From a virus (lineage: Duplodnaviria; Heunggongvirae; Uroviricota; Caudoviricetes), in the IMG/VR virus record IMGVR_UViG_2526164632_000023: 17,922 nucleotides of DNA. One strand, given 5' to 3'. Below the pieces are notes generated by a model, which saw only the letters and a program-made list of their open reading frames with translations, was not told where the DNA came from and did not search any database. The position numbers were made by a program, and so were the translations under genes. Below, in pieces: positions 1 through 17,385 of the stretch. Numbering within the stretch: position 1 is the first letter of the stretch; every line of letters starts with the position of its first letter.

Positions 1-1227
1 GTGGCTGGCACAAACAAACTGAGTGATAAAAAATTAAGATCGCTTCTCGGCGTAAAGCGGGATTCAGTAATTACCATTGCGGATGGTGAAGGATTAAGCA
101 TCAAAGTATCCATGATGGGATGCATTAGTTGGGTTTTCTCTTATCGTCTTGGTGGGCGTGGGAGCAAGTTAGAGCGCATTGTTCTTGGGCGTTACCCTGA
201 CATGTCGTTGAAAATGGCTAGGGAGAAGAGGGAACTATGCCGAAAATGGTATGCGGACGGGCTGAATCCACGACTTGAATTAGAACTTAGCGCAGAAGAA
301 AACCTTAACCCCGTAACTGTCCATGATGCCCTTGAATATTGGCTAATTCATTACGCAAGAAAAAAACGTAGTGACGAGGAACTGGTGCGGGCGCAATTAC
401 GTAAGCATATTTATCCGCGTCTTGGCCACTATCCGTTATCCCGGTGTGAAACGCGTCACTGGGTGGCATGTTTTGATGAAATTAACCAGTTCAGGCCAAT
501 CACTGCCGGGCGAATGTTCCAGATTTGTAAACAGGCCTTAAGATTCTGCAAGGTTCGCCGTTATGCCTCATGTGATGCCCTGGCTTTTATGACAATCCAG
601 GATGTAGGGCAACCATCGGGGCAGCGTGATAGGGTGCTGTCAGATAGTGAGTTAGCTGATGTATGGCGGTGTACTTATAGCGATGAACAGCAATTTTATT
701 ATCTTCGTCTGCTTAAGTTGCTTGTGCTGTTTGGGGCGCGAACAATGGAAGTAAGATTATCACGGTGGAGTGAATGGGATTTTCAGTCATGGATTTGGAC
801 GGTTCCTAAAGAACACAGCAAAACTCGTGAAAAAATAGTTCGTCCAATTCCAGAGGGCATTCGCCCATGGATTGAGGATCTAAAAAAGGAAACGGGAAAA
901 ACAGGAATTGTACTGGGTGAAGAACGTTCCCGCCAGGCTGCTTCGCTTAAAGGGCGTAGGCTATACAAAGATTTTCATCATAATGAGCCATGGACGCTTC
1001 ACGATTTGCGCAGAACATTTTCTACAGGTTTAAATAATATGGGTATTGCGCCACATATTGTAGAGCTTTTACTTGGTCATGCATTGCCGGGGGTGATGGC
1101 TATTTATAACCGTAGTCTGTACTTACCTGAGAAAATGGATGCGTTGAATAAGTGGTATGGCCGATTAGAACTTCTGGCGGGTAATCATCAAAATGTGGTG
1201 CTGTTACCTGTATCGAATAGAGGTTAA
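1..1227 (+). CDS. int: Tyrosine recombinase / integrase, P4-type (satellite/PICI integrase); 5' end lies at the window edge and may be truncated by a few codons
   Basis: 408-aa ORF. N-terminus LSDKKLRSLL...DGEGLSIKV...WVFSYRLGG matches the P4-type integrase arm-binding domain; C-terminus HDLRRTFSTGLNNMGIAPHIVELLLGHALPGVMAIYNRSLY carries the R/H/R/Y catalytic residues. First gene of the island. Confidence 0.9.
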   Translation: MAGTNKLSDKKLRSLLGVKRDSVITIADGEGLSIKVSMMGCISWVFSYRLGGRGSKLERIVLGRYPDMSLKMAREKRELCRKWYADGLNPRLELELSAEENLNPVTVHDALEYWLIHYARKKRSDEELVRAQLRKHIYPRLGHYPLSRCETRHWVACFDEINQFRPITAGRMFQICKQALRFCKVRRYASCDALAFMTIQDVGQPSGQRDRVLSDSELADVWRCTYSDEQQFYYLRLLKLLVLFGARTMEVRLSRWSEWDFQSWIWTVPKEHSKTREKIVRPIPEGIRPWIEDLKKETGKTGIVLGEERSRQAASLKGRRLYKDFHHNEPWTLHDLRRTFSTGLNNMGIAPHIVELLLGHALPGVMAIYNRSLYLPEKMDALNKWYGRLELLAGNHQNVVLLPVSNRG

Positions 1228-1318
1228 ACTGATATTACGGGCATAGGTCGGCCAACCGAAAAGCGGGAAACCCTACCCGCCTGGCTCGTAAAGTATTTAG
1301 GGCGTTGAGGGTAGCGCA

Positions 1319-2384: not shown

Positions 2385-2669
2385 ATGACAAAAACCACAT
2401 TCATTCCCCCAACTCCAGAACAACGCCGGGCGCTTCTTGAAGAATACGGTTTTGAATTTGATCGCCGTATCCGTGAAAAGGAATGCCAGGAAATCACCAG
2501 TCTGTCGCGCTCAACTCGCTTCAAAATGGAAAATGAAGGGCGTTTCCCGCCTCGTTGTCATTTCGGGCGCAATAGCTGTGCGTGGCTTCTCTCTGATGTG
2601 CTTTGGTGGGTTCGTAACCCACCTGCTGTAGATAAAGTCAATAATCCGTACGGTAAGAAAGCTGCATAA
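2385..2669 (+). CDS. alpA: AlpA-family phage/island transcriptional regulator (HTH, excisionase-like)
   Basis: ITSLSRSTRFKMENEGRFPPRCHFGRNSCAWLLSDVLWWV matches the AlpA/Xis-type HTH. Start chosen at ATG 2385, 6 nt after a GGAGG Shine-Dalgarno (2376-2380), rather than the ORF-track start at 2343. Confidence 0.75.
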   Translation: MTKTTFIPPTPEQRRALLEEYGFEFDRRIREKECQEITSLSRSTRFKMENEGRFPPRCHFGRNSCAWLLSDVLWWVRNPPAVDKVNNPYGKKAA

Positions 2670-3011: not shown

Positions 3012-3190
3012 TTACTCCTGCTCTTTGGCCTTGCGACGCTGGCGGCGTTTGATCTCACCTTTAACGGCAGTAACTATAAATTGCGCCTTGCTTTCACCTT
3101 CATCTAAATTTTTTCTAAGTCTGCAACAACATCATGCGGGAATCTGGCATTTAACTGTTGCGACTTATTATTTGTTGAACCTGTTGCCAT
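3012..3190 (-). pseudogene. Ribbon-helix-helix (CopG/Arc/MetJ-like) DNA-binding protein gene, interrupted by an apparent +1/-1 frameshift in a homopolymer run
   Basis: Minus-strand ATG at 3190 gives MATGSTNNKSQQLNARFPHDVVADLEKI then a stop. The adjacent frame continues DEGESKAQFIVTAVKGEIKRRQRRKAKEQE to a TAA at 3012-3014. Adding one base in the A3/T6 run at 3106-3114 restores a 59-aa product with beta-strand, helix, G-x-S turn and second helix. Confidence 0.5.
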
Positions 3191-3301
3191 TACTGAATCC
3201 TCTCTAAGTTGGTGCGATTCAGTATACACAAAAAAAATTTCAGAGAAAGAGTTGAAGTGCGATTCACTTACTGATGGGTTAAAAACGAATGGTGCGATGC
3301 A
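3191..3301. promoter_or_regulatory. Divergent control region with operator-like repeats between the RHH gene and the rightward early operon
   Basis: Inverted repeat TACTGAATC (3191-3199) / GATTCAGTA (3216-3224); three direct copies of GTGCGAT(T/G)CA at 3212-3221, 3257-3266 and 3292-3301; A8 tract at 3229-3236. Confidence 0.45.
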
Positions 3302-3380
3302 CCAAACAACAACGCCCCGCAGTGGTGGCACACATGCAGGGCGTCTAACCACCAACGATAGCGAAAGTATCGAGGTAGCT

Positions 3381-3584
3381 ATGAGAAATTATACCAGACA
3401 CCCGCAAGGGCGGGACTCGTACAACCTGAATAAATACATCTGGCGTTTTATCGCCCTGAGCACGGCACAACCGCGCGTGATTACCATTGAGGCCACCAGC
3501 GAACAGGAAGCACGCCAGCAATCTCCTGATGACTGCGTGATGGTATTCGCCGCCCGTATTCGTCAGGGGGTGCGCCATGCATGA
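3381..3584 (+). CDS. Hypothetical small protein (67 aa), first gene of rightward early operon
   Basis: ATG 3381 preceded by GAGGTAG; the ORF-track extension back to 3252 uses a TTG inside the operator repeats with no RBS. No family recognised. Confidence 0.35.
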   Translation: MRNYTRHPQGRDSYNLNKYIWRFIALSTAQPRVITIEATSEQEARQQSPDDCVMVFAARIRQGVRHA

Positions 3585-3792
3585 TGACCGTTATTTTAAA
3601 TCAATGAGCCATGCAGAAAACGCACTGACTAACAGTGAATGTTTGAGGCAAATATTTCTTATCTGGCTTGATGGTTTAAGTGATGCGCCGGAAGATGAGC
3701 GTGAGTCTAATCTTGCTGGTGCGTTTATTTCATTACTCGATACGGTAATCGTCGAATTAAATAAAGCGATCGAAATTCACGATAAAAAATAA
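3577..3792 (+). CDS. Hypothetical small protein (71 aa)
   Basis: ORF overlaps the upstream stop (coupled arrangement); no family recognised. Confidence 0.4.
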   Translation: MHDDRYFKSMSHAENALTNSECLRQIFLIWLDGLSDAPEDERESNLAGAFISLLDTVIVELNKAIEIHDKK

Positions 3793-3808
3793 ACGCGGAA
3801 TAAAAACC

Positions 3809-4096
3809 ATGAAACAGAAAATTTCTGGCTTTACTGCCAGCGGCCCCGCTCGGCCTGAAATCCGCCCCGGCGATATTTTCCGGGATAACTATGGCGGCAC
3901 GGTAACGATAAAAGGCGTGGTAGAACGGCACATTACTTACCGCCGTGAAGGTTATGAATATGACTGCGTGATGCCTGTTTATCAGTTCCGGCGTGATTTC
4001 ACGCTGGTGGGCCATCGTAAAGCCGTAAATCAGAAACGTGCAGCAAGTCATATCCGCAAAATTCGTGAAATGCTGGTCGCAGGGGGTAAAAAATGA
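3809..4096 (+). CDS. Hypothetical protein (95 aa), translationally coupled to the replication ATPase
   Basis: Stop overlaps the start of the 4093 ORF (ATGA). Confidence 0.5.
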   Translation: MKQKISGFTASGPARPEIRPGDIFRDNYGGTVTIKGVVERHITYRREGYEYDCVMPVYQFRRDFTLVGHRKAVNQKRAASHIRKIREMLVAGGKK

Positions 4097-5499
4097 AACT
4101 GGCACCGAACGTAAAACTGTTACCGAAAGATAAACACACTGAGGCGGTTATTTTTGCGGGTGATAATGCTCACTCCTTTGCAGAACATTACATGATTGCA
4201 CAGGCCAAAAAAGCAGGCGATCCCATCCCTCCGGTTTACCTGGGCCGTTATCAGTTAAGCGAACTGGACAACCTGCAGATTGTTGATGAGGGGCGATACA
4301 GGGTAACGGTGATACGCGCCGGAAATATTGACGAAGCGCAGCTGTTAACCATAGCGACAAAACTGGCGATCGCCGGAGTCCAGGAAGCGCGGCTGCTTTC
4401 TGAAAACTTCGAATTACTGGAGAAATGGACCGACCAGCTTCCACGGCTACGGGAGACATGGGAGAGAGGGGAAAGCCTGATCATGAACGGAGGAAAACAA
4501 AAAATCACGCTACCGATTTCATGGGGTTCTGAGGGATTCGACGCGCAGCAAAGCTACGTAATTAAGGGGCTTATTCCGGCTGAATCATTATGCAGCACCT
4601 ACGGGGCCAGCGGTTCTTATAAATCGTTCCTGGCTATTTCCTGGTCGTGCCATGTTGCCACAGGTATGGCATGGGGAGGCCGCAGGGTAAGTAAGGGCGC
4701 GGTTATCTATATCGCTGGCGAAGGCAGTATGGGCGTAAAACGCCGCGTTAAGGCGTGGGAGATAACCCACGACAAGGTGGTTACGGATTTGTGCATCGTT
4801 AACGCGCCTGTCTTCCCTGCATCGCCTGACTATGTGGAGCAGGTTATCAGGACTGCCGGACTTGTTAAGAGCAGAACGGGCGAAAATGTGCGGCTGATTG
4901 TGATCGACACGCTGGCCCGTTGCTTTGGTGGGAATGATGAAAATGATTCCCGTGATATGGGCGCATTTATCCAGGGGTGTGACGCGATAAAGCAGGCCAC
5001 AGGGGCCACGGTACTGGTGGTTCACCATTCCGGCAAGGATGAAACAAAGGGGGCGCGAGGTTCCAGCGCATTCCGCGCTGCACTGGATGCAGAGTACCGA
5101 ATCAGCCGGGAAAATTCAGACGTTACAGCACTGGTGGCGGCGTGTACGAAGATGAAAGACGCAGAGGAGCCAAAAGAGAGCGCATACGACCTTAAAAGCG
5201 TGGAGGTGTTTACCGATACCGATGGCGAAGAGATTGTGTCCATGGTGGTGATTGACGTTCCCCGCGCCCCTGCTGAACTGGAGCGCATAGAGGAGGCCGG
5301 GAACAAGACGGAAAATCACACGGCTTTATGGGGTTGTATCCGGTCACGTATACAGCATGGTGATAAATGCACGATCCCGCTGCTACGTGATGACATGAAA
5401 AAGCTGGGATATGACACAAAACACCTTAAACGATGGTTAGCCAAACTGGAAAAAGACGGCGTGATTTGCGTCGATGGGGATGATGTTCACCCACTGTAA
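4093..5499 (+). CDS. Replication initiator / RecA-fold AAA ATPase (RepA-like helicase, AAA_25-type) of the island
   Basis: 468 aa. Walker A GASGSYKSFLAISW, Walker B LIVIDTLARCFGG, VLVVHHSGKDETKGARGSSA motif typical of RepA-like helicases; followed directly by an iteron array. Confidence 0.8.
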   Translation: MKLAPNVKLLPKDKHTEAVIFAGDNAHSFAEHYMIAQAKKAGDPIPPVYLGRYQLSELDNLQIVDEGRYRVTVIRAGNIDEAQLLTIATKLAIAGVQEARLLSENFELLEKWTDQLPRLRETWERGESLIMNGGKQKITLPISWGSEGFDAQQSYVIKGLIPAESLCSTYGASGSYKSFLAISWSCHVATGMAWGGRRVSKGAVIYIAGEGSMGVKRRVKAWEITHDKVVTDLCIVNAPVFPASPDYVEQVIRTAGLVKSRTGENVRLIVIDTLARCFGGNDENDSRDMGAFIQGCDAIKQATGATVLVVHHSGKDETKGARGSSAFRAALDAEYRISRENSDVTALVAACTKMKDAEEPKESAYDLKSVEVFTDTDGEEIVSMVVIDVPRAPAELERIEEAGNKTENHTALWGCIRSRIQHGDKCTIPLLRDDMKKLGYDTKHLKRWLAKLEKDGVICVDGDDVHPL

Positions 5500-5700
5500 A
5501 AAGTGGGCGTTAAAAGTGGGAATAGTGGGTAATTTAACTGGAATTTAACAAAATCGCCCACTTTCCCACGTGTATACATCCCAAAAAGTGGGCACTAAAA
5601 AAATTCTTATGAAACAGCACGATATAAAACCACAAAATCCCAGGTGGGACGAAGTGGGAAACCATGAAAAGTGGGTAGAAAAAGTGGGCACAGGTGGGCG
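5490..5700. repeat. Iteron array (about 10 copies of (A/G)GTGGG, mostly as AAAAGTGGGNA, two inverted), candidate replication origin
   Basis: Read directly: AGTGGG at 5502, 5515, 5524, 5587, 5653, 5670, 5683; GGTGGG at 5643, 5693; inverted CCCACT at 5490 and 5557. Immediately downstream of the rep gene. Confidence 0.6.
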
Positions 5701-5701
5701 C

Positions 5702-5953
5702 ATGACCAGAAAAACCAGAGATAAGACAACACCAAAATATCGCGCATTAGACATGACAGAGCACGCCTTAAAGGTGGCAATCAGAACGATAGACCGCCAC
5801 GCCGGAGAAGGATACGCGAAAGCACATCCCGAACTGATAAGCGCATTCATGATCACGGCGGCGGCAAATTTTGCCACACTGACAGAACGGGAGATTGCCG
5901 AAGCGGAACAGGTGACAACCATCAACGTTAAAACCGGAGAGCAGACAGCATGA
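5702..5953 (+). CDS. Hypothetical protein (83 aa)
   Basis: Start moved to ATG 5702, just past the iterons; the ORF-track N-terminal 44 aa would be translated through the repeat array. Stop overlaps the ssb start (ATGA). Confidence 0.45.
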   Translation: MTRKTRDKTTPKYRALDMTEHALKVAIRTIDRHAGEGYAKAHPELISAFMITAAANFATLTEREIAEAEQVTTINVKTGEQTA

Positions 5954-6375
5954 CAGCACAGATAGCGGCTTACGGGCGGCTGGTGGCTGACCCGCAGCTA
6001 AAGACCACCAGCAAAGGGACACAAATGGCGATGGCGAGTATGGCGGTTCCCCTGCCATGCAGCCAGGCAGATGACGGAACGGCGACGATGTGGTTATCTG
6101 TCCTGGCGTTTGGCAGACAGGCCGACGCACTGGCAAAACACCACAAAGGCGAACTGGTGAGCGTGGCGGGTAACATGCAGGTGAGCCAGTGGACAGGCCA
6201 GAACGGGGAAACGCGGCAGGGCTGGCAGGTTATTGCAGACAGCGTAATCAGTGCGCGAACGGCGCGACCGGGCGGCAAAAAAGGTCAACAGGGCCAGGCC
6301 ACTGACGCACTGAACAGGGCAAAACAACAGACAAGCCAGCACGATGACCCGTACGGGGATAACATACCGTTTTAA
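5950..6375 (+). CDS. ssb: Single-stranded DNA-binding protein
   Basis: 141 aa; OB-fold-like N-terminal region, Gly/Gln-rich linker, acidic C-terminal tail ending DDPYGDNIPF (canonical SSB tail ends DDDIPF). Confidence 0.8.
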   Translation: MTAQIAAYGRLVADPQLKTTSKGTQMAMASMAVPLPCSQADDGTATMWLSVLAFGRQADALAKHHKGELVSVAGNMQVSQWTGQNGETRQGWQVIADSVISARTARPGGKKGQQGQATDALNRAKQQTSQHDDPYGDNIPF

Positions 6376-6411
6376 TTCACAACAGCGAACAGAGTAATTA
6401 CGGGGGAAGGC

Positions 6412-6954
6412 ATGACAACGCTGACCATTAACCGGAAGCCGAAAGGCATTTACGGCACGCCGCAGAAAACGACGCAGGCGGCGCAAGAGCAGGATAAAAC
6501 CACATCGGCGCATAAAGTGATACCCGATAATCAGAACGCACAGCAGAGCCGCAAACAGAAGACCGCAGGGGCGACACCGTGGCAGCATATGACCAAAAGA
6601 CAGCGCAAAAACCGCCGACGCGTTAACCGCCTCACTGAGATGTGGCCTGACTTATTCAGCCATAAAGCACCGAAGCCGCTTAAGGTGGGGATATTCGACG
6701 ACCTGATGCAGGATATCGCCGTCAGGGGGCTGGCATTCGGGTCGGGGGTATTACGTGCGACGCTGGCATCCTATGCGCAGTCTCCGCGCTATTACCGCGC
6801 CCTGATAGCTGGTGGCGCACGTTACGACCTGAAAGGCCAGCCATGTGGGGAAGTGACACCACAGGAACAGCAGGAGGCAGAAACACGGCTGATGGTGCTG
6901 AATGAGAAGCACAAGCGCCAGCGCCGGGCAGCAAAGGGGGATACATGCCAGTGA
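6412..6954 (+). CDS. ProQ/FinO-domain RNA-binding protein
   Basis: Central region PLKVGIFDDL...LRATLASYAQSPRYYRALIAGGARYDLKGQPCGEVTPQEQQEAE aligns by eye with the ProQ/FinO N-terminal domain as I remember it (PLKIGIF.DL ... LRSALRLYT.S.RY ... RVDLDGNPCGEL). Basic N- and C-terminal extensions. GGGGAAGG RBS before ATG 6412. Confidence 0.8.
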   Translation: MTTLTINRKPKGIYGTPQKTTQAAQEQDKTTSAHKVIPDNQNAQQSRKQKTAGATPWQHMTKRQRKNRRRVNRLTEMWPDLFSHKAPKPLKVGIFDDLMQDIAVRGLAFGSGVLRATLASYAQSPRYYRALIAGGARYDLKGQPCGEVTPQEQQEAETRLMVLNEKHKRQRRAAKGDTCQ

Positions 6955-7193
6955 CATTTGAAGAAGTTCAGCAACATAAAAAGCTTCATGGTTTTGATGA
7001 TCTGGAAACCACGACAGCAAAAAAATATCGTCGGTTGCTTTCTTCCGATGCGTTATTTTTTGTGGATCATCATGATTTTCTGCGTAGCTCACTGACCGGG
7101 GAAATTTTCGCAACCAACCGTGAGCAGGTGGAAGCGATGATCGAATATTTGTGGAAAATAAGACGCAGAATGCGGGAGCCAGTGAAACAATAA
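6945..7193 (+). CDS. Hypothetical protein (82 aa), last gene of early operon
   Basis: Start overlaps the previous stop; followed by a terminator hairpin. Confidence 0.5.
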   Translation: MPVTFEEVQQHKKLHGFDDLETTTAKKYRRLLSSDALFFVDHHDFLRSSLTGEIFATNREQVEAMIEYLWKIRRRMREPVKQ

Positions 7194-7202
7194 AGCGATA
7201 AA

Positions 7203-7229
7203 GGCCCGGATTTTTTCCGGGTCTTTTTT
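7203..7229 (+). terminator. Rho-independent terminator after early operon
   Basis: CCCGGA / TCCGGG stem with T-rich loop, followed by a T run (aaggcccggattttttccgggtctttttt). Confidence 0.5.
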
Positions 7230-7272: not shown

Positions 7273-7357
7273 GTAAGCGCATCATTTAAACCGTCTTTCG
7301 CCTCCCTTTCCTGTTTCCGATACTAATGTCCATTTTCGCAGTAAAAGGACATTTAAG

Positions 7358-8008
7358 ATGAATGCACGAAAAGCGGTACTGGCAGATAATCCAGAATTGA
7401 TCCTGCGTGTGCTACAGCTGAGATTTGACGAGTCACTGTCGTACCCGCGCATTTCTGCGCAGACTGGTGTCAGCAAAACCGCCATTTTTTCTCTGGTGAG
7501 GCGATTTCACCAGGTATTCACTGACTGGCCTCTTTCCGGTGAATATTCCTGCGGGCAACTGGCCCGGGCTCTTTTCCCGGGGCGATACCCTTCAGCCCCG
7601 ACCGTGACTCAGCCTGTGAAAGCAGAGAAACCCCGCCGGAACCGATTTTCACCGGAGTTTAAATGGAGACTGGTTCAGCAAACTCTTTTACCCGGTGCCT
7701 GTGTCGCACAAATAGCTCGAGAGAATGGAATTAACGATAACCTGCTCTTTAACTGGCGGCATCTCTGGCGTAACGGTGGCCTGCAACCGCCCGGCGAACA
7801 TGAAACATCGCTACTTCCCGTGACGTTAACTCCGGAGCCGGATAATAAAATCCCGGCACCAGTGCAGATACCTGAACAGATAAATACACTGCCAGACAGT
7901 CTGTGCTGCGAGCTGGTTCTGCCGGCCGGAACTCTCAGGCTGAAAGGTGAACTGACACCGGCGTTATTACAGACACTTATCCGCGAAATGAAAGGGAGCA
8001 GCCACTGA
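7358..8008 (+). CDS. tnpA: IS66-family accessory protein TnpA (orfA)
   Basis: 216 aa with HTH-like N-terminus; position and sequence typical of IS66 orfA; stop overlaps the tnpB start. Confidence 0.8.
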   Translation: MNARKAVLADNPELILRVLQLRFDESLSYPRISAQTGVSKTAIFSLVRRFHQVFTDWPLSGEYSCGQLARALFPGRYPSAPTVTQPVKAEKPRRNRFSPEFKWRLVQQTLLPGACVAQIARENGINDNLLFNWRHLWRNGGLQPPGEHETSLLPVTLTPEPDNKIPAPVQIPEQINTLPDSLCCELVLPAGTLRLKGELTPALLQTLIREMKGSSH

Positions 8009-8355
8009 TGATATCTCTCCCTGCCGGTTCGCGTATCTGGCTGGTTGCCGGTATCACCGATATGCGAAATGGCTTTAACGGCCTGGCCTCAAAAGTTCAG
8101 AACGTCCTGAAGGATGACCCGTTCTCCGGGCATCTGTTCATCTTCCGCGGACGCCGGGGTGACCAGATAAAAGTGCTGTGGGCTGACAGTGACGGACTGT
8201 GCCTCTTCACCAAACGCCTGGAGCGGGGCCGCTTCGTCTGGCCGGTCACCCGCGATGGAAAGGTTCACCTTACTCCGGCTCAGTTGTCCATGCTTCTCGA
8301 AGGCATCGACTGGAAGCACCCGAAACGAACGGAACGCGCTGGCATCCGCATATAA
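8008..8355 (+). CDS. tnpB: IS66-family accessory protein TnpB (orfB)
   Basis: 115 aa, MISLPAGSRIWLVAGITDMRNGFNGLA...LWADSDGLCLFTKRLERGRF is the conserved IS66 orfB signature. Confidence 0.9.
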   Translation: MISLPAGSRIWLVAGITDMRNGFNGLASKVQNVLKDDPFSGHLFIFRGRRGDQIKVLWADSDGLCLFTKRLERGRFVWPVTRDGKVHLTPAQLSMLLEGIDWKHPKRTERAGIRI

Positions 8356-8374
8356 CCCGTTGTAAAGTGAGGAT

Positions 8375-9945
8375 ATGGACACCTCACTTGCTCATGAGAA
8401 TGCCCGCCTGCGGGCACTGTTGCAGACGCAACAGGACACCATCCGCCAGATGGCGAAATACAACCGCCTGCTCTCACAGCGGGTGGCGGCTTATGCTTCC
8501 GAAATCAACCGGCTGAAGGCGCTGGTTGCGAAACTGCAGCGCATGCAGTTCGGTAAAAGCTCAGAAAAACTTCGCGCTAAAACCGAACGGCAGATACAGG
8601 AAGCACAGGAGCGAATCAGCGCACTTCAGGAAGAAATGGCGGAAACGCTGGGTGAGCAATATGACCCGGTACTGCCATCCGCCCTGCGCCAGTCTTCAGC
8701 CCGTAAACCGTTACCGGCCTCACTTCCCCGTGAAACCCGGGTCATCCGGCCGGAAGAGGAATGCTGCCCGGCCTGTGGTGGTGACCTCAGTCCTCTGGGG
8801 TGTGATGTGTCAGAGCAACTGGAGCTTATCAGCAGCGCCTTTAAGGTTATCGAAACACAACGTCCGAAACTGGCCTGTTGTCGGTGCGACCATATCGTGC
8901 AGGCAACAGTACCTTCAAAACCCATTGCACGCAGTTATGCCGGAGCGGGGCTTCTGGCCCATGTTGTTACCGGGAAATATGCAGACCATCTGCCGTTATA
9001 CCGCCAGTCAGAAATATACCGTCGCCAGGGCGTGGAGCTGAGCCGCGCCACGCTGGGGCGCTGGACAGGTGCCGTTGCTGAACTGCTGGAGCCGCTGTAT
9101 GACGTCCTGCGCCAGTATGTGCTGATGCCCGGTAAAGTCCATGCTGATGATATCCCCGTCCCGGTCCAGGAGCCGGGCAGCGGTAAAACCCGGACCGCCC
9201 GGCTGTGGGTCTACGTCCGTGATGACCGTAACGCCGGTTCGGAAATGCCCCCGGCGGTCTGGTTCGCGTACTCACCGGACCGGAAAGGTATCCATCCACA
9301 AAATCATCTGGCCGGTTACAGCGGTGTGCTTCAGGCCGATGCTTACGGTGGTTACCGGGTGTTATACGAATCCGGCAGAATAACGGAAGCCGCGTGTATG
9401 GCTCATGCCCGGAGAAAAATCCACGATGTGCATGCAAGAGTGCCCACCGACATCACCACGGAAGCCCTGCAGCGTATCGGTGAACTGTATGCCATAGAGG
9501 CAGAATCCGGGGATGTACAGCAGAACAGCGTCTGGCGGCAAGAAAAGCCAGAGCTGCGCCACTGATGCAGTCACTGTATGACTGGATACAGACTCAGATG
9601 AAAACACTGTCGCGTCACTCGGATACGGCAAAAGCGTTCGCATACCTGCTGAAACAGTGGGATGGCCTGAACGTGTACTGCAGTAATGGCTGGGTGGAAA
9701 TCGACAACAACATCGCAGAGAACGCCTTACGGGGAGTGGCCGTAGGCCGGAAAAACTGGCTGTTCGCGGGTTCCGACAGCGGTGGCGAACATGCGGCGGT
9801 GTTGTACTCGCTGATCGGCACATGCCGTCTGAACAATGTGGAACCAGAAAAATGGCTGCGTTACGTCATTGAGCATATCCAGGATTGGCCGGCAAACCGG
9901 GTACGCGATCTGTTGCCCTGGAAAGTTGATCTGACCTCTCAGTAA
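8375..9945 (+). pseudogene. tnpC: IS66-family transposase TnpC, split by an apparent 1-nt frameshift near 9500-9510
   Basis: ORF 8375-9565 has the leucine-zipper N-terminus, CPACGG...CCRC zinc-finger motif and DDE core; ORF 9565-9945 in another frame carries the conserved C-terminus [26 protein letters not shown]. The second frame is open back to 9484, so the shift lies in 9484-9565. Confidence 0.8.
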
Positions 9946-9975
9946 ATATCAATACGGTTCTGGCGAGCCGCTTAC

Positions 9976-16174: not shown

Positions 16175-16422
16175 CGAGAATGAGCGAAACCGAACTACTA
16201 AAAATAATCCGCCGCGTTACCGGAATCAGCCAGCAGCATGACGAACAGGCCACGCAGCCGGACAGCGTGACCGCCGAAAATTATGTGCGTGTTGTAGCGG
16301 AAGTGATGCGCCGTAATGGTATCCAGCTTAATGATGTGGATATGCGCAACATACGGATCCGCGTTCTGGAAATGCTGGCATACCGTCGCCGCGTGGAGAT
16401 GTATCGGGAGAAGGAAAAATAA
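16171..16422 (+). CDS. Hypothetical protein (83 aa) downstream of terL
   Basis: Start overlaps the terL stop (ATGA); no family recognised. Confidence 0.45.
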   Translation: MTRMSETELLKIIRRVTGISQQHDEQATQPDSVTAENYVRVVAEVMRRNGIQLNDVDMRNIRIRVLEMLAYRRRVEMYREKEK

Positions 16423-16457
16423 CTTACCACTGGAAGAAGCCGGAGCGGTTGCGGCGG

Positions 16458-16650
16458 TAACTGGTTGATATTTTCGAAATTCGCCAGCGGCGAACATCGG
16501 GGAAACCAGCCTAACCCGTTGATATTTTCGGGAACAGCCAACGGCTGAGGCCGGATCAACCGACTATCTTTCAGATAGTCACAAACTACGAAATTTTCAC
16601 AGTTTAATTACTCGCCAGCTTAATCGCTAACTCACTGATATTTTCGGAAA
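16458..16650. repeat. Three direct copies of a ~20-bp unit TAAC(N4)TGATATTTTCG(R)(R)AA, with a fourth partial copy at 16767-16779
   Basis: Exact 11-mer TGATATTTTCG at 16466-16476, 16520-16530 and 16636-16646; 15-mer GCCTAACCCGTTGAT at 16509-16523 and 16765-16779; palindrome GACTATCT-TTC-AGATAGTC at 16562-16580. Confidence 0.6.
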
Positions 16651-16790
16651 CCTCGATTTGAGGAGACCGGAACGTCTACATGGCTGCATCACCATAACGA
16701 TGATTTAGCCCACCAGCAACCATAACGATTTCCGTTACAGTTGATGTGCTTTTTTGCTGGTAAGGCCTAACCCGTTGATTCTTCCACAAT

Positions 16791-16848
16791 CCCCCATTGG
16801 GGGAGGCTGGACGGCCTGCTGTGGGCTTTTCCACCATTGGTGGAAAAG
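16791..16848. repeat. Two palindromes centred on CCA-T-TGG (CCCCCATTGGGGG and CTTTTCCACCATTGGTGGAAAAG)
   Basis: Read directly: 6-bp arms at 16791-16803 and 11-bp arms at 16826-16848, each around a single central T. Confidence 0.5.
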
Positions 16849-17385
16849 TGGCGCGACTACAGGGCTGGATCATCAATATGGTGACGCAGCAACAGAGTGA
16901 CCATTAGTCACCTTGTTCTAACTCGCTGTATTCGTTTAATTTCCACCAACTGCGGAAATTGAGAAACTCACCCGCCAGATTCTGAATGGTGAAAATCACC
17001 GGGGATCTGAATAGGCATTTCCTCTATGGAGGTCGCACCGTTTTCGGGAGAAGGTGCGATCATGTTCGTCATACCGGTTCCGTTGAAATGAAATAGCCTT
17101 GTATGGGCATCATCACCATGCAGGGGATCAAAATCTCTGTAGCTTCATGTTGCCGGGACCGCCAGCCTCGCCAAATTTTTGCGTTTGTGAAAAACGAAAA
17201 TTATTACGTGCTTTGCCCTCTCCTGTTTCTGATGTTGTATACTCGCGGCCTTCTAATTGTGCTGGTGCTTTTTTGAGATTGTGGCGCTGTGTATCGATCC
17301 GTATATCATTCGGTGTATCACTTTTGATAAATTGCTACGTGTGAATTTGTTTTTAACTGACAAAAATCAGTGAGTTATGTGAATT

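Follow-up and report, generated by a model that had tools for sequence, protein, structure and literature searches.

The ProQ_sat gene and its product

The 17,922-nt stretch of viral DNA held as IMG/VR record IMGVR_UViG_2526164632_000023 (the whole of which is called ‘the window’ here) is a 17.9-kb capsid-forming phage-inducible chromosomal island (cf-PICI) of Escherichia coli, inserted between gcd and hpt. Its early operon, which includes the replication functions, carries at positions 6412-6954 an open reading frame (ORF) for a satellite FinO-domain protein, for which the working name ProQ_sat is used. The island is 99.7% identical to one in the O166:H15 sister strain JNE21-003 and has the defining features of a cf-PICI: a size of about 15 kb, int, alpA, a replication gene with an origin of replication (ori), and a packaging set of its own (capsid, protease, portal, connector, HNH, TerS and TerL), with tail and lysis genes absent. 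Genes were assigned from Pfam, PHROG, NCBIfam and RefSeq, and their coordinates are collected in Table 1.

An earlier sequence-only reading had described the 180-aa product as a ProQ/FinO domain flanked by basic tails, and profile and structure searches bear this out. PF04352 (ProQ/FinO) is the sole Pfam match of ProQ_sat (E 8.5e-24, 84.1 bits against a cut-off of 27), spanning residues 68-172 of the protein and positions 5-108 of the 109 in the profile. The significant sequence matches in the PDB are all FinO-domain proteins: the ProQ N-terminal domain (5nb9, 7.7e-12), FinO (1dvo, 6.4e-11), NMB1681 (3mw6, 1e-9) and RocC (7rgt). An AlphaFold2 model (31 homologues) gives predicted local distance difference test (pLDDT) values of 85-95 for residues 56-176, with helices at 62-77, 94-105, 111-122, 125-133 and 150-176 and strands at 136-138 and 144-147; residues 1-54 are predicted to be disordered. 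The model has the helical core with beta-hairpin that characterizes the FinO fold, and the top 27 Foldseek matches in the PDB are all FinO-domain structures, with target template-modelling (TM) scores of up to 0.84. As to the tails, residues 1-61 contain 9 K/R against 3 D/E, as read from the translation, residues 62-73 are KRQRKNRRRVNR, and the C-terminus is KHKRQRRAAK. Though disordered, the N-terminal tail is nonetheless conserved across the subfamily (MTxLTINRKPKGIYG... in the family alignment).

The residues R58, Y70 and R80 of E. coli ProQ have been found by experiment to be essential for RNA binding (PMC10168233). They align to R115, Y127 and R137 of ProQ_sat, which are at least 90% conserved in the 31 homologues; K35 of ProQ corresponds to K91, invariant in the subfamily, and G37 and D41 are also conserved. 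Judged from its sequence and predicted structure, ProQ_sat is a genuine FinO-domain RNA-binding protein, with an intact fold and a conserved triad for binding RNA 3′ ends, and it is almost certainly a functional RNA binder expressed from the induced early operon. Its ligand is a prediction from sequence, taken up below. Membership of a known anti-phage defence system was rejected, as the PADLOC models gave no match for ProQ_sat or its neighbours at E <= 0.01.

A narrow subfamily confined to islands

ProQ_sat falls well short of the cut-offs of the NCBIfam models for FinO (67.9 bits against 136) and for the ProQ equivalog (59 bits against 127), and by this measure it is an orthologue of neither. 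A search of 1.84 billion cluster representatives gave 2110 FinO-family relatives at E <= 1e-3, of which merely 7 reach E <= 1e-30, so that the subfamily is compact. Homologues make up 293 clusters at 90%, and of 5426 complete E. coli genomes 1095 contain DNA resembling the gene, a single genome having as many as 9 such places; together these counts put conservation of the gene far beyond chance. The E. coli places, 1565 in total, all lie on chromosomes, with none on a plasmid, and the copies in Salmonella and Citrobacter likewise lie inside PICIs. Phage genomes contain remote relatives alone, at no more than 40% identity, and plasmid relatives are mostly below 45%, reaching at most about 43% over the domain. 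The subfamily is narrow, enterobacterial and confined to phage-inducible chromosomal islands.

Each of the E. coli matches listed is annotated ‘ProQ/FINO family protein’. This RefSeq name predates the present analysis, and the domain call was therefore already known; in the literature searched, ProQ/FinO proteins in satellites are mentioned as annotation alone (PMC13612085; PMC13230959). The ORF is intact across 52 distinct gene variants. Frameshifted ProQ/FinO copies occur in degraded islands of E. coli 2013C-4991 (L003) and E24377A (L004), where they adjoin H-NS-family, ‘inovirus Gp2’, AlpA and insertion sequence (IS) genes with no recognisable PICI around them.

An optional cassette between ssb and orf82

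The place of ProQ_sat among satellites was assessed in 80 IMG/VR loci selected by ProQ_sat and 80 selected by the icd-like protein, all scored for the genes of the window; a scan of genome contigs gave 5 loci and added little to this set. Most of the satellites selected by the icd-like protein are without ProQ_sat, yet their ssb, orf82 and capsid/terminase module are 90-100% identical to those of the window. In sibling cf-PICIs whose neighbouring genes are 96-100% identical, ProQ_sat is missing or a PerC gene occupies its slot, and one ProQ-less island (L148) has the same integrase and AlpA as the window island. Alignment of the junctions shows three states of the slot between ssb and orf82 (6376-6944 in the window; also loci L099, L104, L108, L119, L125, L127, L128, L141 and L148): empty with a 20-nt spacer, filled by the ProQ_sat ORF with a 36-nt spacer, or filled by a PerC-family gene. 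The 36-nt spacer carries the ribosome-binding site of ProQ_sat itself, and spacer and ORF are essentially the whole of the insert.

Amongst cf-PICIs, ProQ_sat and PerC exclude one another: PerC is absent from 22/22 ProQ+ loci and present in 15/19 ProQ- loci. In the classical PICIs, which have no capsid genes, an overlapping PerC gene follows ProQ in 61/62 loci. PerC has been treated as an accessory, host-directed regulator or cargo of PICIs (PMC11773190). The replication protein encoded upstream of ProQ_sat differs between islands, being RepA helicase, DUF927 or D5 primase, which are unrelated to one another. ProQ_sat is an optional, promoter-less cassette in a variable cargo slot and not a core gene. 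The lack of a promoter follows from the matches to the ProQ-PerC module, which begin just ~10-16 nt before the ATG, leaving the cassette dependent on read-through from the early operon. ProQ_sat would therefore be made only on transcription of the early operon, which follows induction of the satellite, and it is probably silent in the uninduced island.

The sequence-only reading had placed the gene after ssb, near the end of the early operon, and had suggested RNA-level control of island replication or packaging, or of helper-phage or host transcripts. The placement stands, with ssb just upstream, orf82 overlapping and a terminator close behind (Table 1). The suggested function stays a proposal, and one result weakens it: ProQ_sat cannot be a core controller of island replication or packaging, because the cassette is optional in near-identical siblings.

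A candidate antisense RNA at the early leader

When the early leaders are aligned, the ~90 nt from the putative early promoter to the ATG of the icd-like gene resolve into two conserved hairpins, SL1 and SL2, which may belong to a short cis-antisense RNA on the minus strand. Both are kept on that strand in 59 distinct leader variants, with 96.3% of cells paired. SL2 has double compensatory changes in 10 of its 14 pairs, one variant of wholly different sequence included. None of 500 shuffles reached the observed covariation, and when the partner columns are slid the pairing drops to 35-54%. The strand can be assigned because 249 cells are G.U on the minus strand and would turn into C.A mismatches if read from the plus strand (96.3% paired against 80.7%), and the RNAalifold energy is -25.0 kcal/mol on the minus strand and -5.7 on the plus. 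A -10-like box, TGGTATGAT or TGGTATAAT, is present in 57/59 variants; it is of the extended type, TGGTAT[G/A]AT, and lies at the right distance for the candidate RNA.

SL2 and the U-rich tail that follows it form a conserved candidate terminator for the antisense RNA. Another minus-strand hairpin, at 3304-3290, was rejected in this role, being an island-specific operator-like palindrome that is not conserved as a terminator. The candidate RNA has no family in Rfam, and RefSeq shows protein genes alone at this place. An RNA of the P1 c4 or P4 CI type upstream of the icd-like gene was also rejected, since neither strand matched Rfam at a threshold as lax as E <= 10.

The candidate occurs in essentially all PICIs of the icd-like family, with an SL2 sequence particular to each island, and all ProQ_sat loci with sufficient upstream sequence are in islands of the icd-DUF4222 type with an antisense-bearing leader. 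By analogy, its architecture is that of the FinP/traJ and Inc/repZ RNAs, which are described as known partners of plasmid FinO-domain proteins (PMC9977716; PMC8053102, PMC8136791).

Other candidate RNA partners

A small RNA carried on the cassette was discounted, since the insert is spacer and ORF alone, and no window of lowered synonymous diversity that might mark an RNA element inside the ORF was found in the 52 gene variants. Four minus-strand ‘terminator-like’ hits at 6539-6617 fall where the coding sequence is rich in K/R codons, and base composition is the best explanation for them. The int-alpA RNA was set aside as a partner: by sequence similarity, with no covariance-model search made, it is in 0/80 of the ProQ-selected loci and in one ProQ-less locus. 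Folding of its single sequence is no better than that of shuffled controls (z -0.2).

The sequence-only reading had advised a search of 16430-17100 for structured antisense transcripts, and the region was rejected as a source of a partner: its hairpins lack U-tails, 16420-16500 folds like shuffled sequence (z -1.2), and the region occurs with and without ProQ. It occupies non-coding DNA past terL and ahead of hpt, and contains four 47-nt direct repeats (16455-16811), each with TAAC..GTTGATATTTTCG, a short hairpin that differs per copy yet stays paired, and GGCCGGA; two copies of the palindrome TTTCCACCATTGGTGGAAA follow at 16828-16958. These repeats may be DNA sites, related to packaging or attachment, more likely than RNA.

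Layout of the island

The order of the early operon and the remaining features are given in Table 1. On the plus strand, terminator-like sites are absent from ~3288 to 7200, and the genes overlap or are closely spaced. The iterons after repA were detected as repeat families D1, D4 and I2-I4; because they occupy 5498-5700, the listed ORF 5570-5953 probably starts at 5702 (orf83, 83 aa, phrog_1231). The overlap of the orf82 ATG with the ProQ_sat stop codon suggests that the two are translationally coupled. The terminator that ends the operon, 250 nt downstream of ProQ_sat, has an A-rich 5′ flank, an 11-bp stem and a U-tail, and by analogy is a generic type of ligand for FinO domains.

Table 1. 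Coordinates of genes and other features in the window
Feature	Position	Strand	Remarks
Integrase	1-1227		
int-alpA RNA motif (Rfam RF02996)	1236-1302	+	55.2 bits against a gathering score of 35.8; directly after the integrase stop
orf258			between int-alpA RNA and the AlpA-like gene
AlpA-like excisionase/regulator	2385-2669		
Short leftward operon			YlcI/YnfO-like gene and 62-aa ORF; ends in terminator 2716-2697
Putative early rightward promoter	3252-3281	+	-35 TTGAAG at 3252, 17-nt spacer, -10 TGGGTT at 3275
Candidate cis-antisense RNA	3303-3383	-	~80 nt; opposite the 5′ untranslated region, Shine-Dalgarno and start of the icd-like gene
Candidate antisense promoter, -10-like TGGTATAAT	3396-3388	-	
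SL1	3381-3346	-	complementary to the icd-like Shine-Dalgarno and the region just 5′ of the start codon
SL2	3345-3311	-	followed by U-rich tail
Early/replication operon		+	icd-like, orf71, DUF4222, repA, ori, orf83, ssb, proQ, orf82, terminator
icd-like gene	3381-3584	+	first early gene
RepA-type helicase (AAA_25)	4093-5499	+	island replication initiator; Pfam E 4e-43; RefSeq ‘helicase RepA family protein’
Probable ori	5498-5700	.	~six direct and inverted copies of iteron AAAAGTGGG, directly after repA
ssb	5950-6375	+	Pfam PF00436 SSB, E 4e-16; 36 nt upstream of ProQ_sat
Ribosome-binding site of ProQ_sat, GGGGGAAGG	6402-6410	+	Shine-Dalgarno-like; read from sequence and from the alignment of ProQ+/ProQ- junctions
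ProQ_sat coding sequence	6412-6954	+	180 codons, ATG to TGA; RefSeq WP_000209990.1, annotated in the sister strain
N-terminal tail, residues 1-55	6412-6576	+	predicted disordered, net basic; pLDDT <50
FinO domain, residues ~62-172	6595-6927	+	with R115, Y127, R137 and long C-terminal helix
orf82 (phrog_1957)	6945-7193	+	ATG overlaps the ProQ_sat stop codon (ATGccaGTGA)
Intrinsic terminator	7200-7229	+	early operon end; AAAGGCCCGGA-UUUUU-UCCGGGUCUUU-UUU; dG -22.3 kcal/mol, z -5.1
Late operon			capsid, protease, portal, connector, HNH, TerS, TerL; downstream of IS679

The early -10, inferred from the alignment of leader variants, is TGGGTT in the window and TAGGTT in the sister strain. In the divergent promoter region (3205-3305) there are three operator-like repeats GTGCGATTCA, at ~3211, 3257 and 3291, which in other islands are swapped as a set for other palindromes, such as GTGTTCAACAC or GTGTAAGACAC; this set-wise replacement suggests island-specific pairs of repressor and operator. 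The leftward terminator on the minus strand (2697-2716; GGCGACCGCCCCCGGUCGCC then UUUGUUUU, dG -17.5 kcal/mol, z -5.1) closes the YlcI operon and converges on the 3′ end of alpA, and is another generic ligand of the FinO type. The YlcI/YnfO-like gene is frameshifted at 3109-3114 by loss of a base from a homopolymer (T6 in the window, T7 in JNE21-003), which could be a real pseudogene or a sequencing error.

A copy of IS679 (IS66 family) lies at 7274-9975, between the early terminator (~45 nt away) and the capsid gene (~200 nt away). It has a target duplication of 8-9 bp, and a frameshift divides its transposase into ORFs 8375-9565 and 9565-9945. JNE21-003, whose island is otherwise identical, has an intact IS679 elsewhere, between repA and orf83 in the ori region, and three further strains have the island without any IS.

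Comparison with known FinO-domain systems

FinO of the F-like plasmids, which acts with FinP on traJ, resembles ProQ_sat in size (186 against 180 aa) and in layout, with a basic N-terminal extension, a FinO core and a long C-terminal helix. The two are 34% identical over 95 aligned columns (hhalign probability 98.3%), and the ProQ_sat model matches 1dvo in Foldseek with a root mean square deviation of 2.0 A. The likeness of the N-terminal motifs (LTLKRKTEG in FinO, LTINRKPKG in ProQ_sat) was found not to be significant. Both proteins are on mobile elements and are often missing or defective in related elements, and the ProQ_sat island also has a two-hairpin antisense candidate over the ribosome-binding site of the lead gene. 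However, ProQ_sat is on a chromosomal satellite whilst FinO is encoded at the end of the tra operon, Rfam gives no FinP match in the window, and the candidate antisense RNA is not inherited together with ProQ_sat.

FopA of the IncI1 plasmid pCol1B9 and PcnR of IncI2 are described as using an antisense RNA directed at the rep leader to control copy number (PMC9977716; PMC8053102). Likened by description, they too are FinO-domain proteins encoded beside the replication functions of a mobile replicon, and the logic proposed is the same, namely enhanced antisense repression of an operon that contains the initiator, which for ProQ_sat is inferred. They differ in that the antisense candidate of the ProQ_sat island lies over the icd-like gene, ~700 nt upstream of repA, and not over the rep leader, and in that ProQ_sat is dispensable and the candidate also occurs without it.

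Chromosomal ProQ of E. coli and Salmonella is the best sequence match amongst solved structures (5nb9, 38% identity over 88 aa) and shares with ProQ_sat the RNA-binding residues described above, R58, Y70, R80, K35, G37 and D41 in ProQ numbering. ProQ_sat lacks its linker and C-terminal Tudor-like domain, and ProQ lacks the 55-residue N-terminal tail. The minimal ProQ proteins, Neisseria NMB1681 and Legionella Lpp1663, and RocC are essentially single-domain like ProQ_sat, and they provide its best structural matches (target TM-scores of 0.80 for 3mw6_B and 0.84 for 7rgt_F). In contrast to ProQ_sat, which is satellite cargo with extra basic tails, they are chromosomal housekeeping or competence regulators, at 24-32% identity to it.

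Possible functions of ProQ_sat

The proposal that is tentatively favoured is that ProQ_sat may be a FinO-like chaperone acting on the antisense RNA of the leader. Like plasmid FinO, FopA and PcnR, it would bind a short cis-antisense RNA at its terminator-type 3′ stem-loop and U-tail, and the best candidate for such an RNA is the ~80-nt two-hairpin RNA at 3383-3303 on the minus strand. Binding would stabilise the antisense RNA and speed its pairing with the early-operon leader. Since ProQ_sat is itself a product of the operon so regulated, the outcome would be a negative feedback on expression of the early and replication genes, that is, a control of copy number or of timing. Binding by FinO domains follows RNA structure and not sequence, whilst the antisense hairpin varies by island; thus one copy of ProQ_sat might act in trans for every satellite resident in the cell, host ProQ being the fallback, and most islands could therefore do without the gene. 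The patchy distribution of ProQ_sat would then be like that of functional finO, which is patchy among F-like plasmids. It is rather doubtful that this extends to PICIs in general running a FinOP-like switch, in which each island would have its antisense RNA and a subset would supply ProQ_sat as a trans-acting co-factor. Such a switch would set induction thresholds, copy number or cross-immunity of satellites, and in it ProQ_sat might possibly also act on antisense RNAs of helpers or plasmids.

A number of observations weigh against the antisense proposal. The search for antisense transcripts that the sequence-only reading had advised did produce, at the operon leader, a candidate with covariation support, but it lies over the icd-like gene and is present in 72/72 of the ProQ-less islands examined, so that it cannot be dependent on ProQ_sat and co-occurrence lends the partnership no support. 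When five non-coding features (the int-alpA RNA, the leftward terminator, the early leader, ori and the 16430-17100 region) were set against the locus set, none was found to track with ProQ_sat, and a dedicated partner RNA inherited with it in the manner of FinP is not supported. The cassette is dispensable and alternates with PerC, and a protein made only after induction cannot help to silence the island beforehand. The antisense RNA is itself predicted: its candidate promoter overlaps conserved icd codons 3-6, and the U-tail after SL2 is interrupted (mean 52% U). K54 and R62 of ProQ, which make secondary contacts to the RNA stem, are replaced in ProQ_sat by the non-basic S111 and A119. Finally, the literature searched yielded no experiment on any satellite FinO-domain protein.

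The main rival, itself somewhat unlikely, is that ProQ_sat is outward-directed cargo which broadly binds terminator hairpins of host, helper-phage or competitor RNAs, for example host small RNAs and 3′ untranslated regions, phage antisense RNAs or FinP-like plasmid RNAs, and so at induction reprograms the cell or the helper in the satellite's favour. Cargo of this kind would suit a variable slot that is filled or empty among near-identical islands, the absence of a cis partner inherited with the gene, and the presence of up to 9 copies per genome. The exchange with PerC in cf-PICIs (22/22 and 15/19) and the tandem with PerC in classical PICIs (61/62) point the same way, PerC being regarded as a host-directed accessory regulator (PMC11773190), and minimal FinO-domain proteins are described as able to bind RNA globally (PMC7272453). 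However, a gene with no promoter of its own, probably silent before induction, fits poorly with cargo for lysogenic conversion; there is no PADLOC match, and no candidate external target emerged from the analysis. A target closer to hand is the terminator at 7200-7229, on the same transcript and canonical in form, of a structure that FinO domains are described as recognising (PMC9674577; PMC10168233). By binding it, and possibly the 3′ ends of the late operon, ProQ_sat would shield the polycistronic messages from 3′ exonucleases and raise the expression of satellite genes, in the way that ProQ acts at the 3′ ends of some mRNAs. This is improbable, as the terminator and orf82 are also in ProQ-less siblings, so that protection is not required, and host ProQ could already fill the role.

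The position of the gene can also be read as function instead of as a cargo slot, with ProQ_sat assisting SSB, primase or helicase at ori in the handling of RNA primers or R-loops. ProQ_sat is always downstream of the replication gene and ori in both architectures, and ssb is adjacent in cf-PICIs and in some classical PICIs. Yet many ProQ+ classical PICIs are without ssb, the replication proteins alongside are of three unrelated kinds, siblings dispense with ProQ_sat, and no FinO-domain protein known to us acts directly in DNA replication; a role of this sort is very unlikely. Least credible is a decaying or neutral passenger with no current function. Frameshifted copies do occur in the degraded islands of 2013C-4991 and E24377A, but the ORF is intact in 52 distinct variants, the RNA-binding residues are invariant or nearly so, and even the disordered N-terminal tail is conserved.

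Implications

FinO-domain proteins have so far been studied on plasmids (FinO, FopA, PcnR) and chromosomes (ProQ, RocC, NMB1681). The gene call made here is ordinary and was annotated beforehand, and a FinO-domain chaperone on a mobile element is of a well-known kind; what is new is a satellite-specific subfamily, found in roughly one in five complete E. coli genomes, as swappable cargo beside PerC. The antisense candidate supplies a concrete hypothesis for its action. Were its targets RNAs of the host or helper, ProQ_sat would represent a novel type of satellite cargo, and a FinOP-like switch, if PICIs run one, would add a regulatory layer dependent on an RNA chaperone, the first to be described for phage satellites. 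If the antisense partnership is real, satellites would have an RNA-level layer of control analogous to plasmid fertility inhibition or copy-number control, and this would affect how frequently the islands, and the virulence or defence cargo that they carry, are mobilised.

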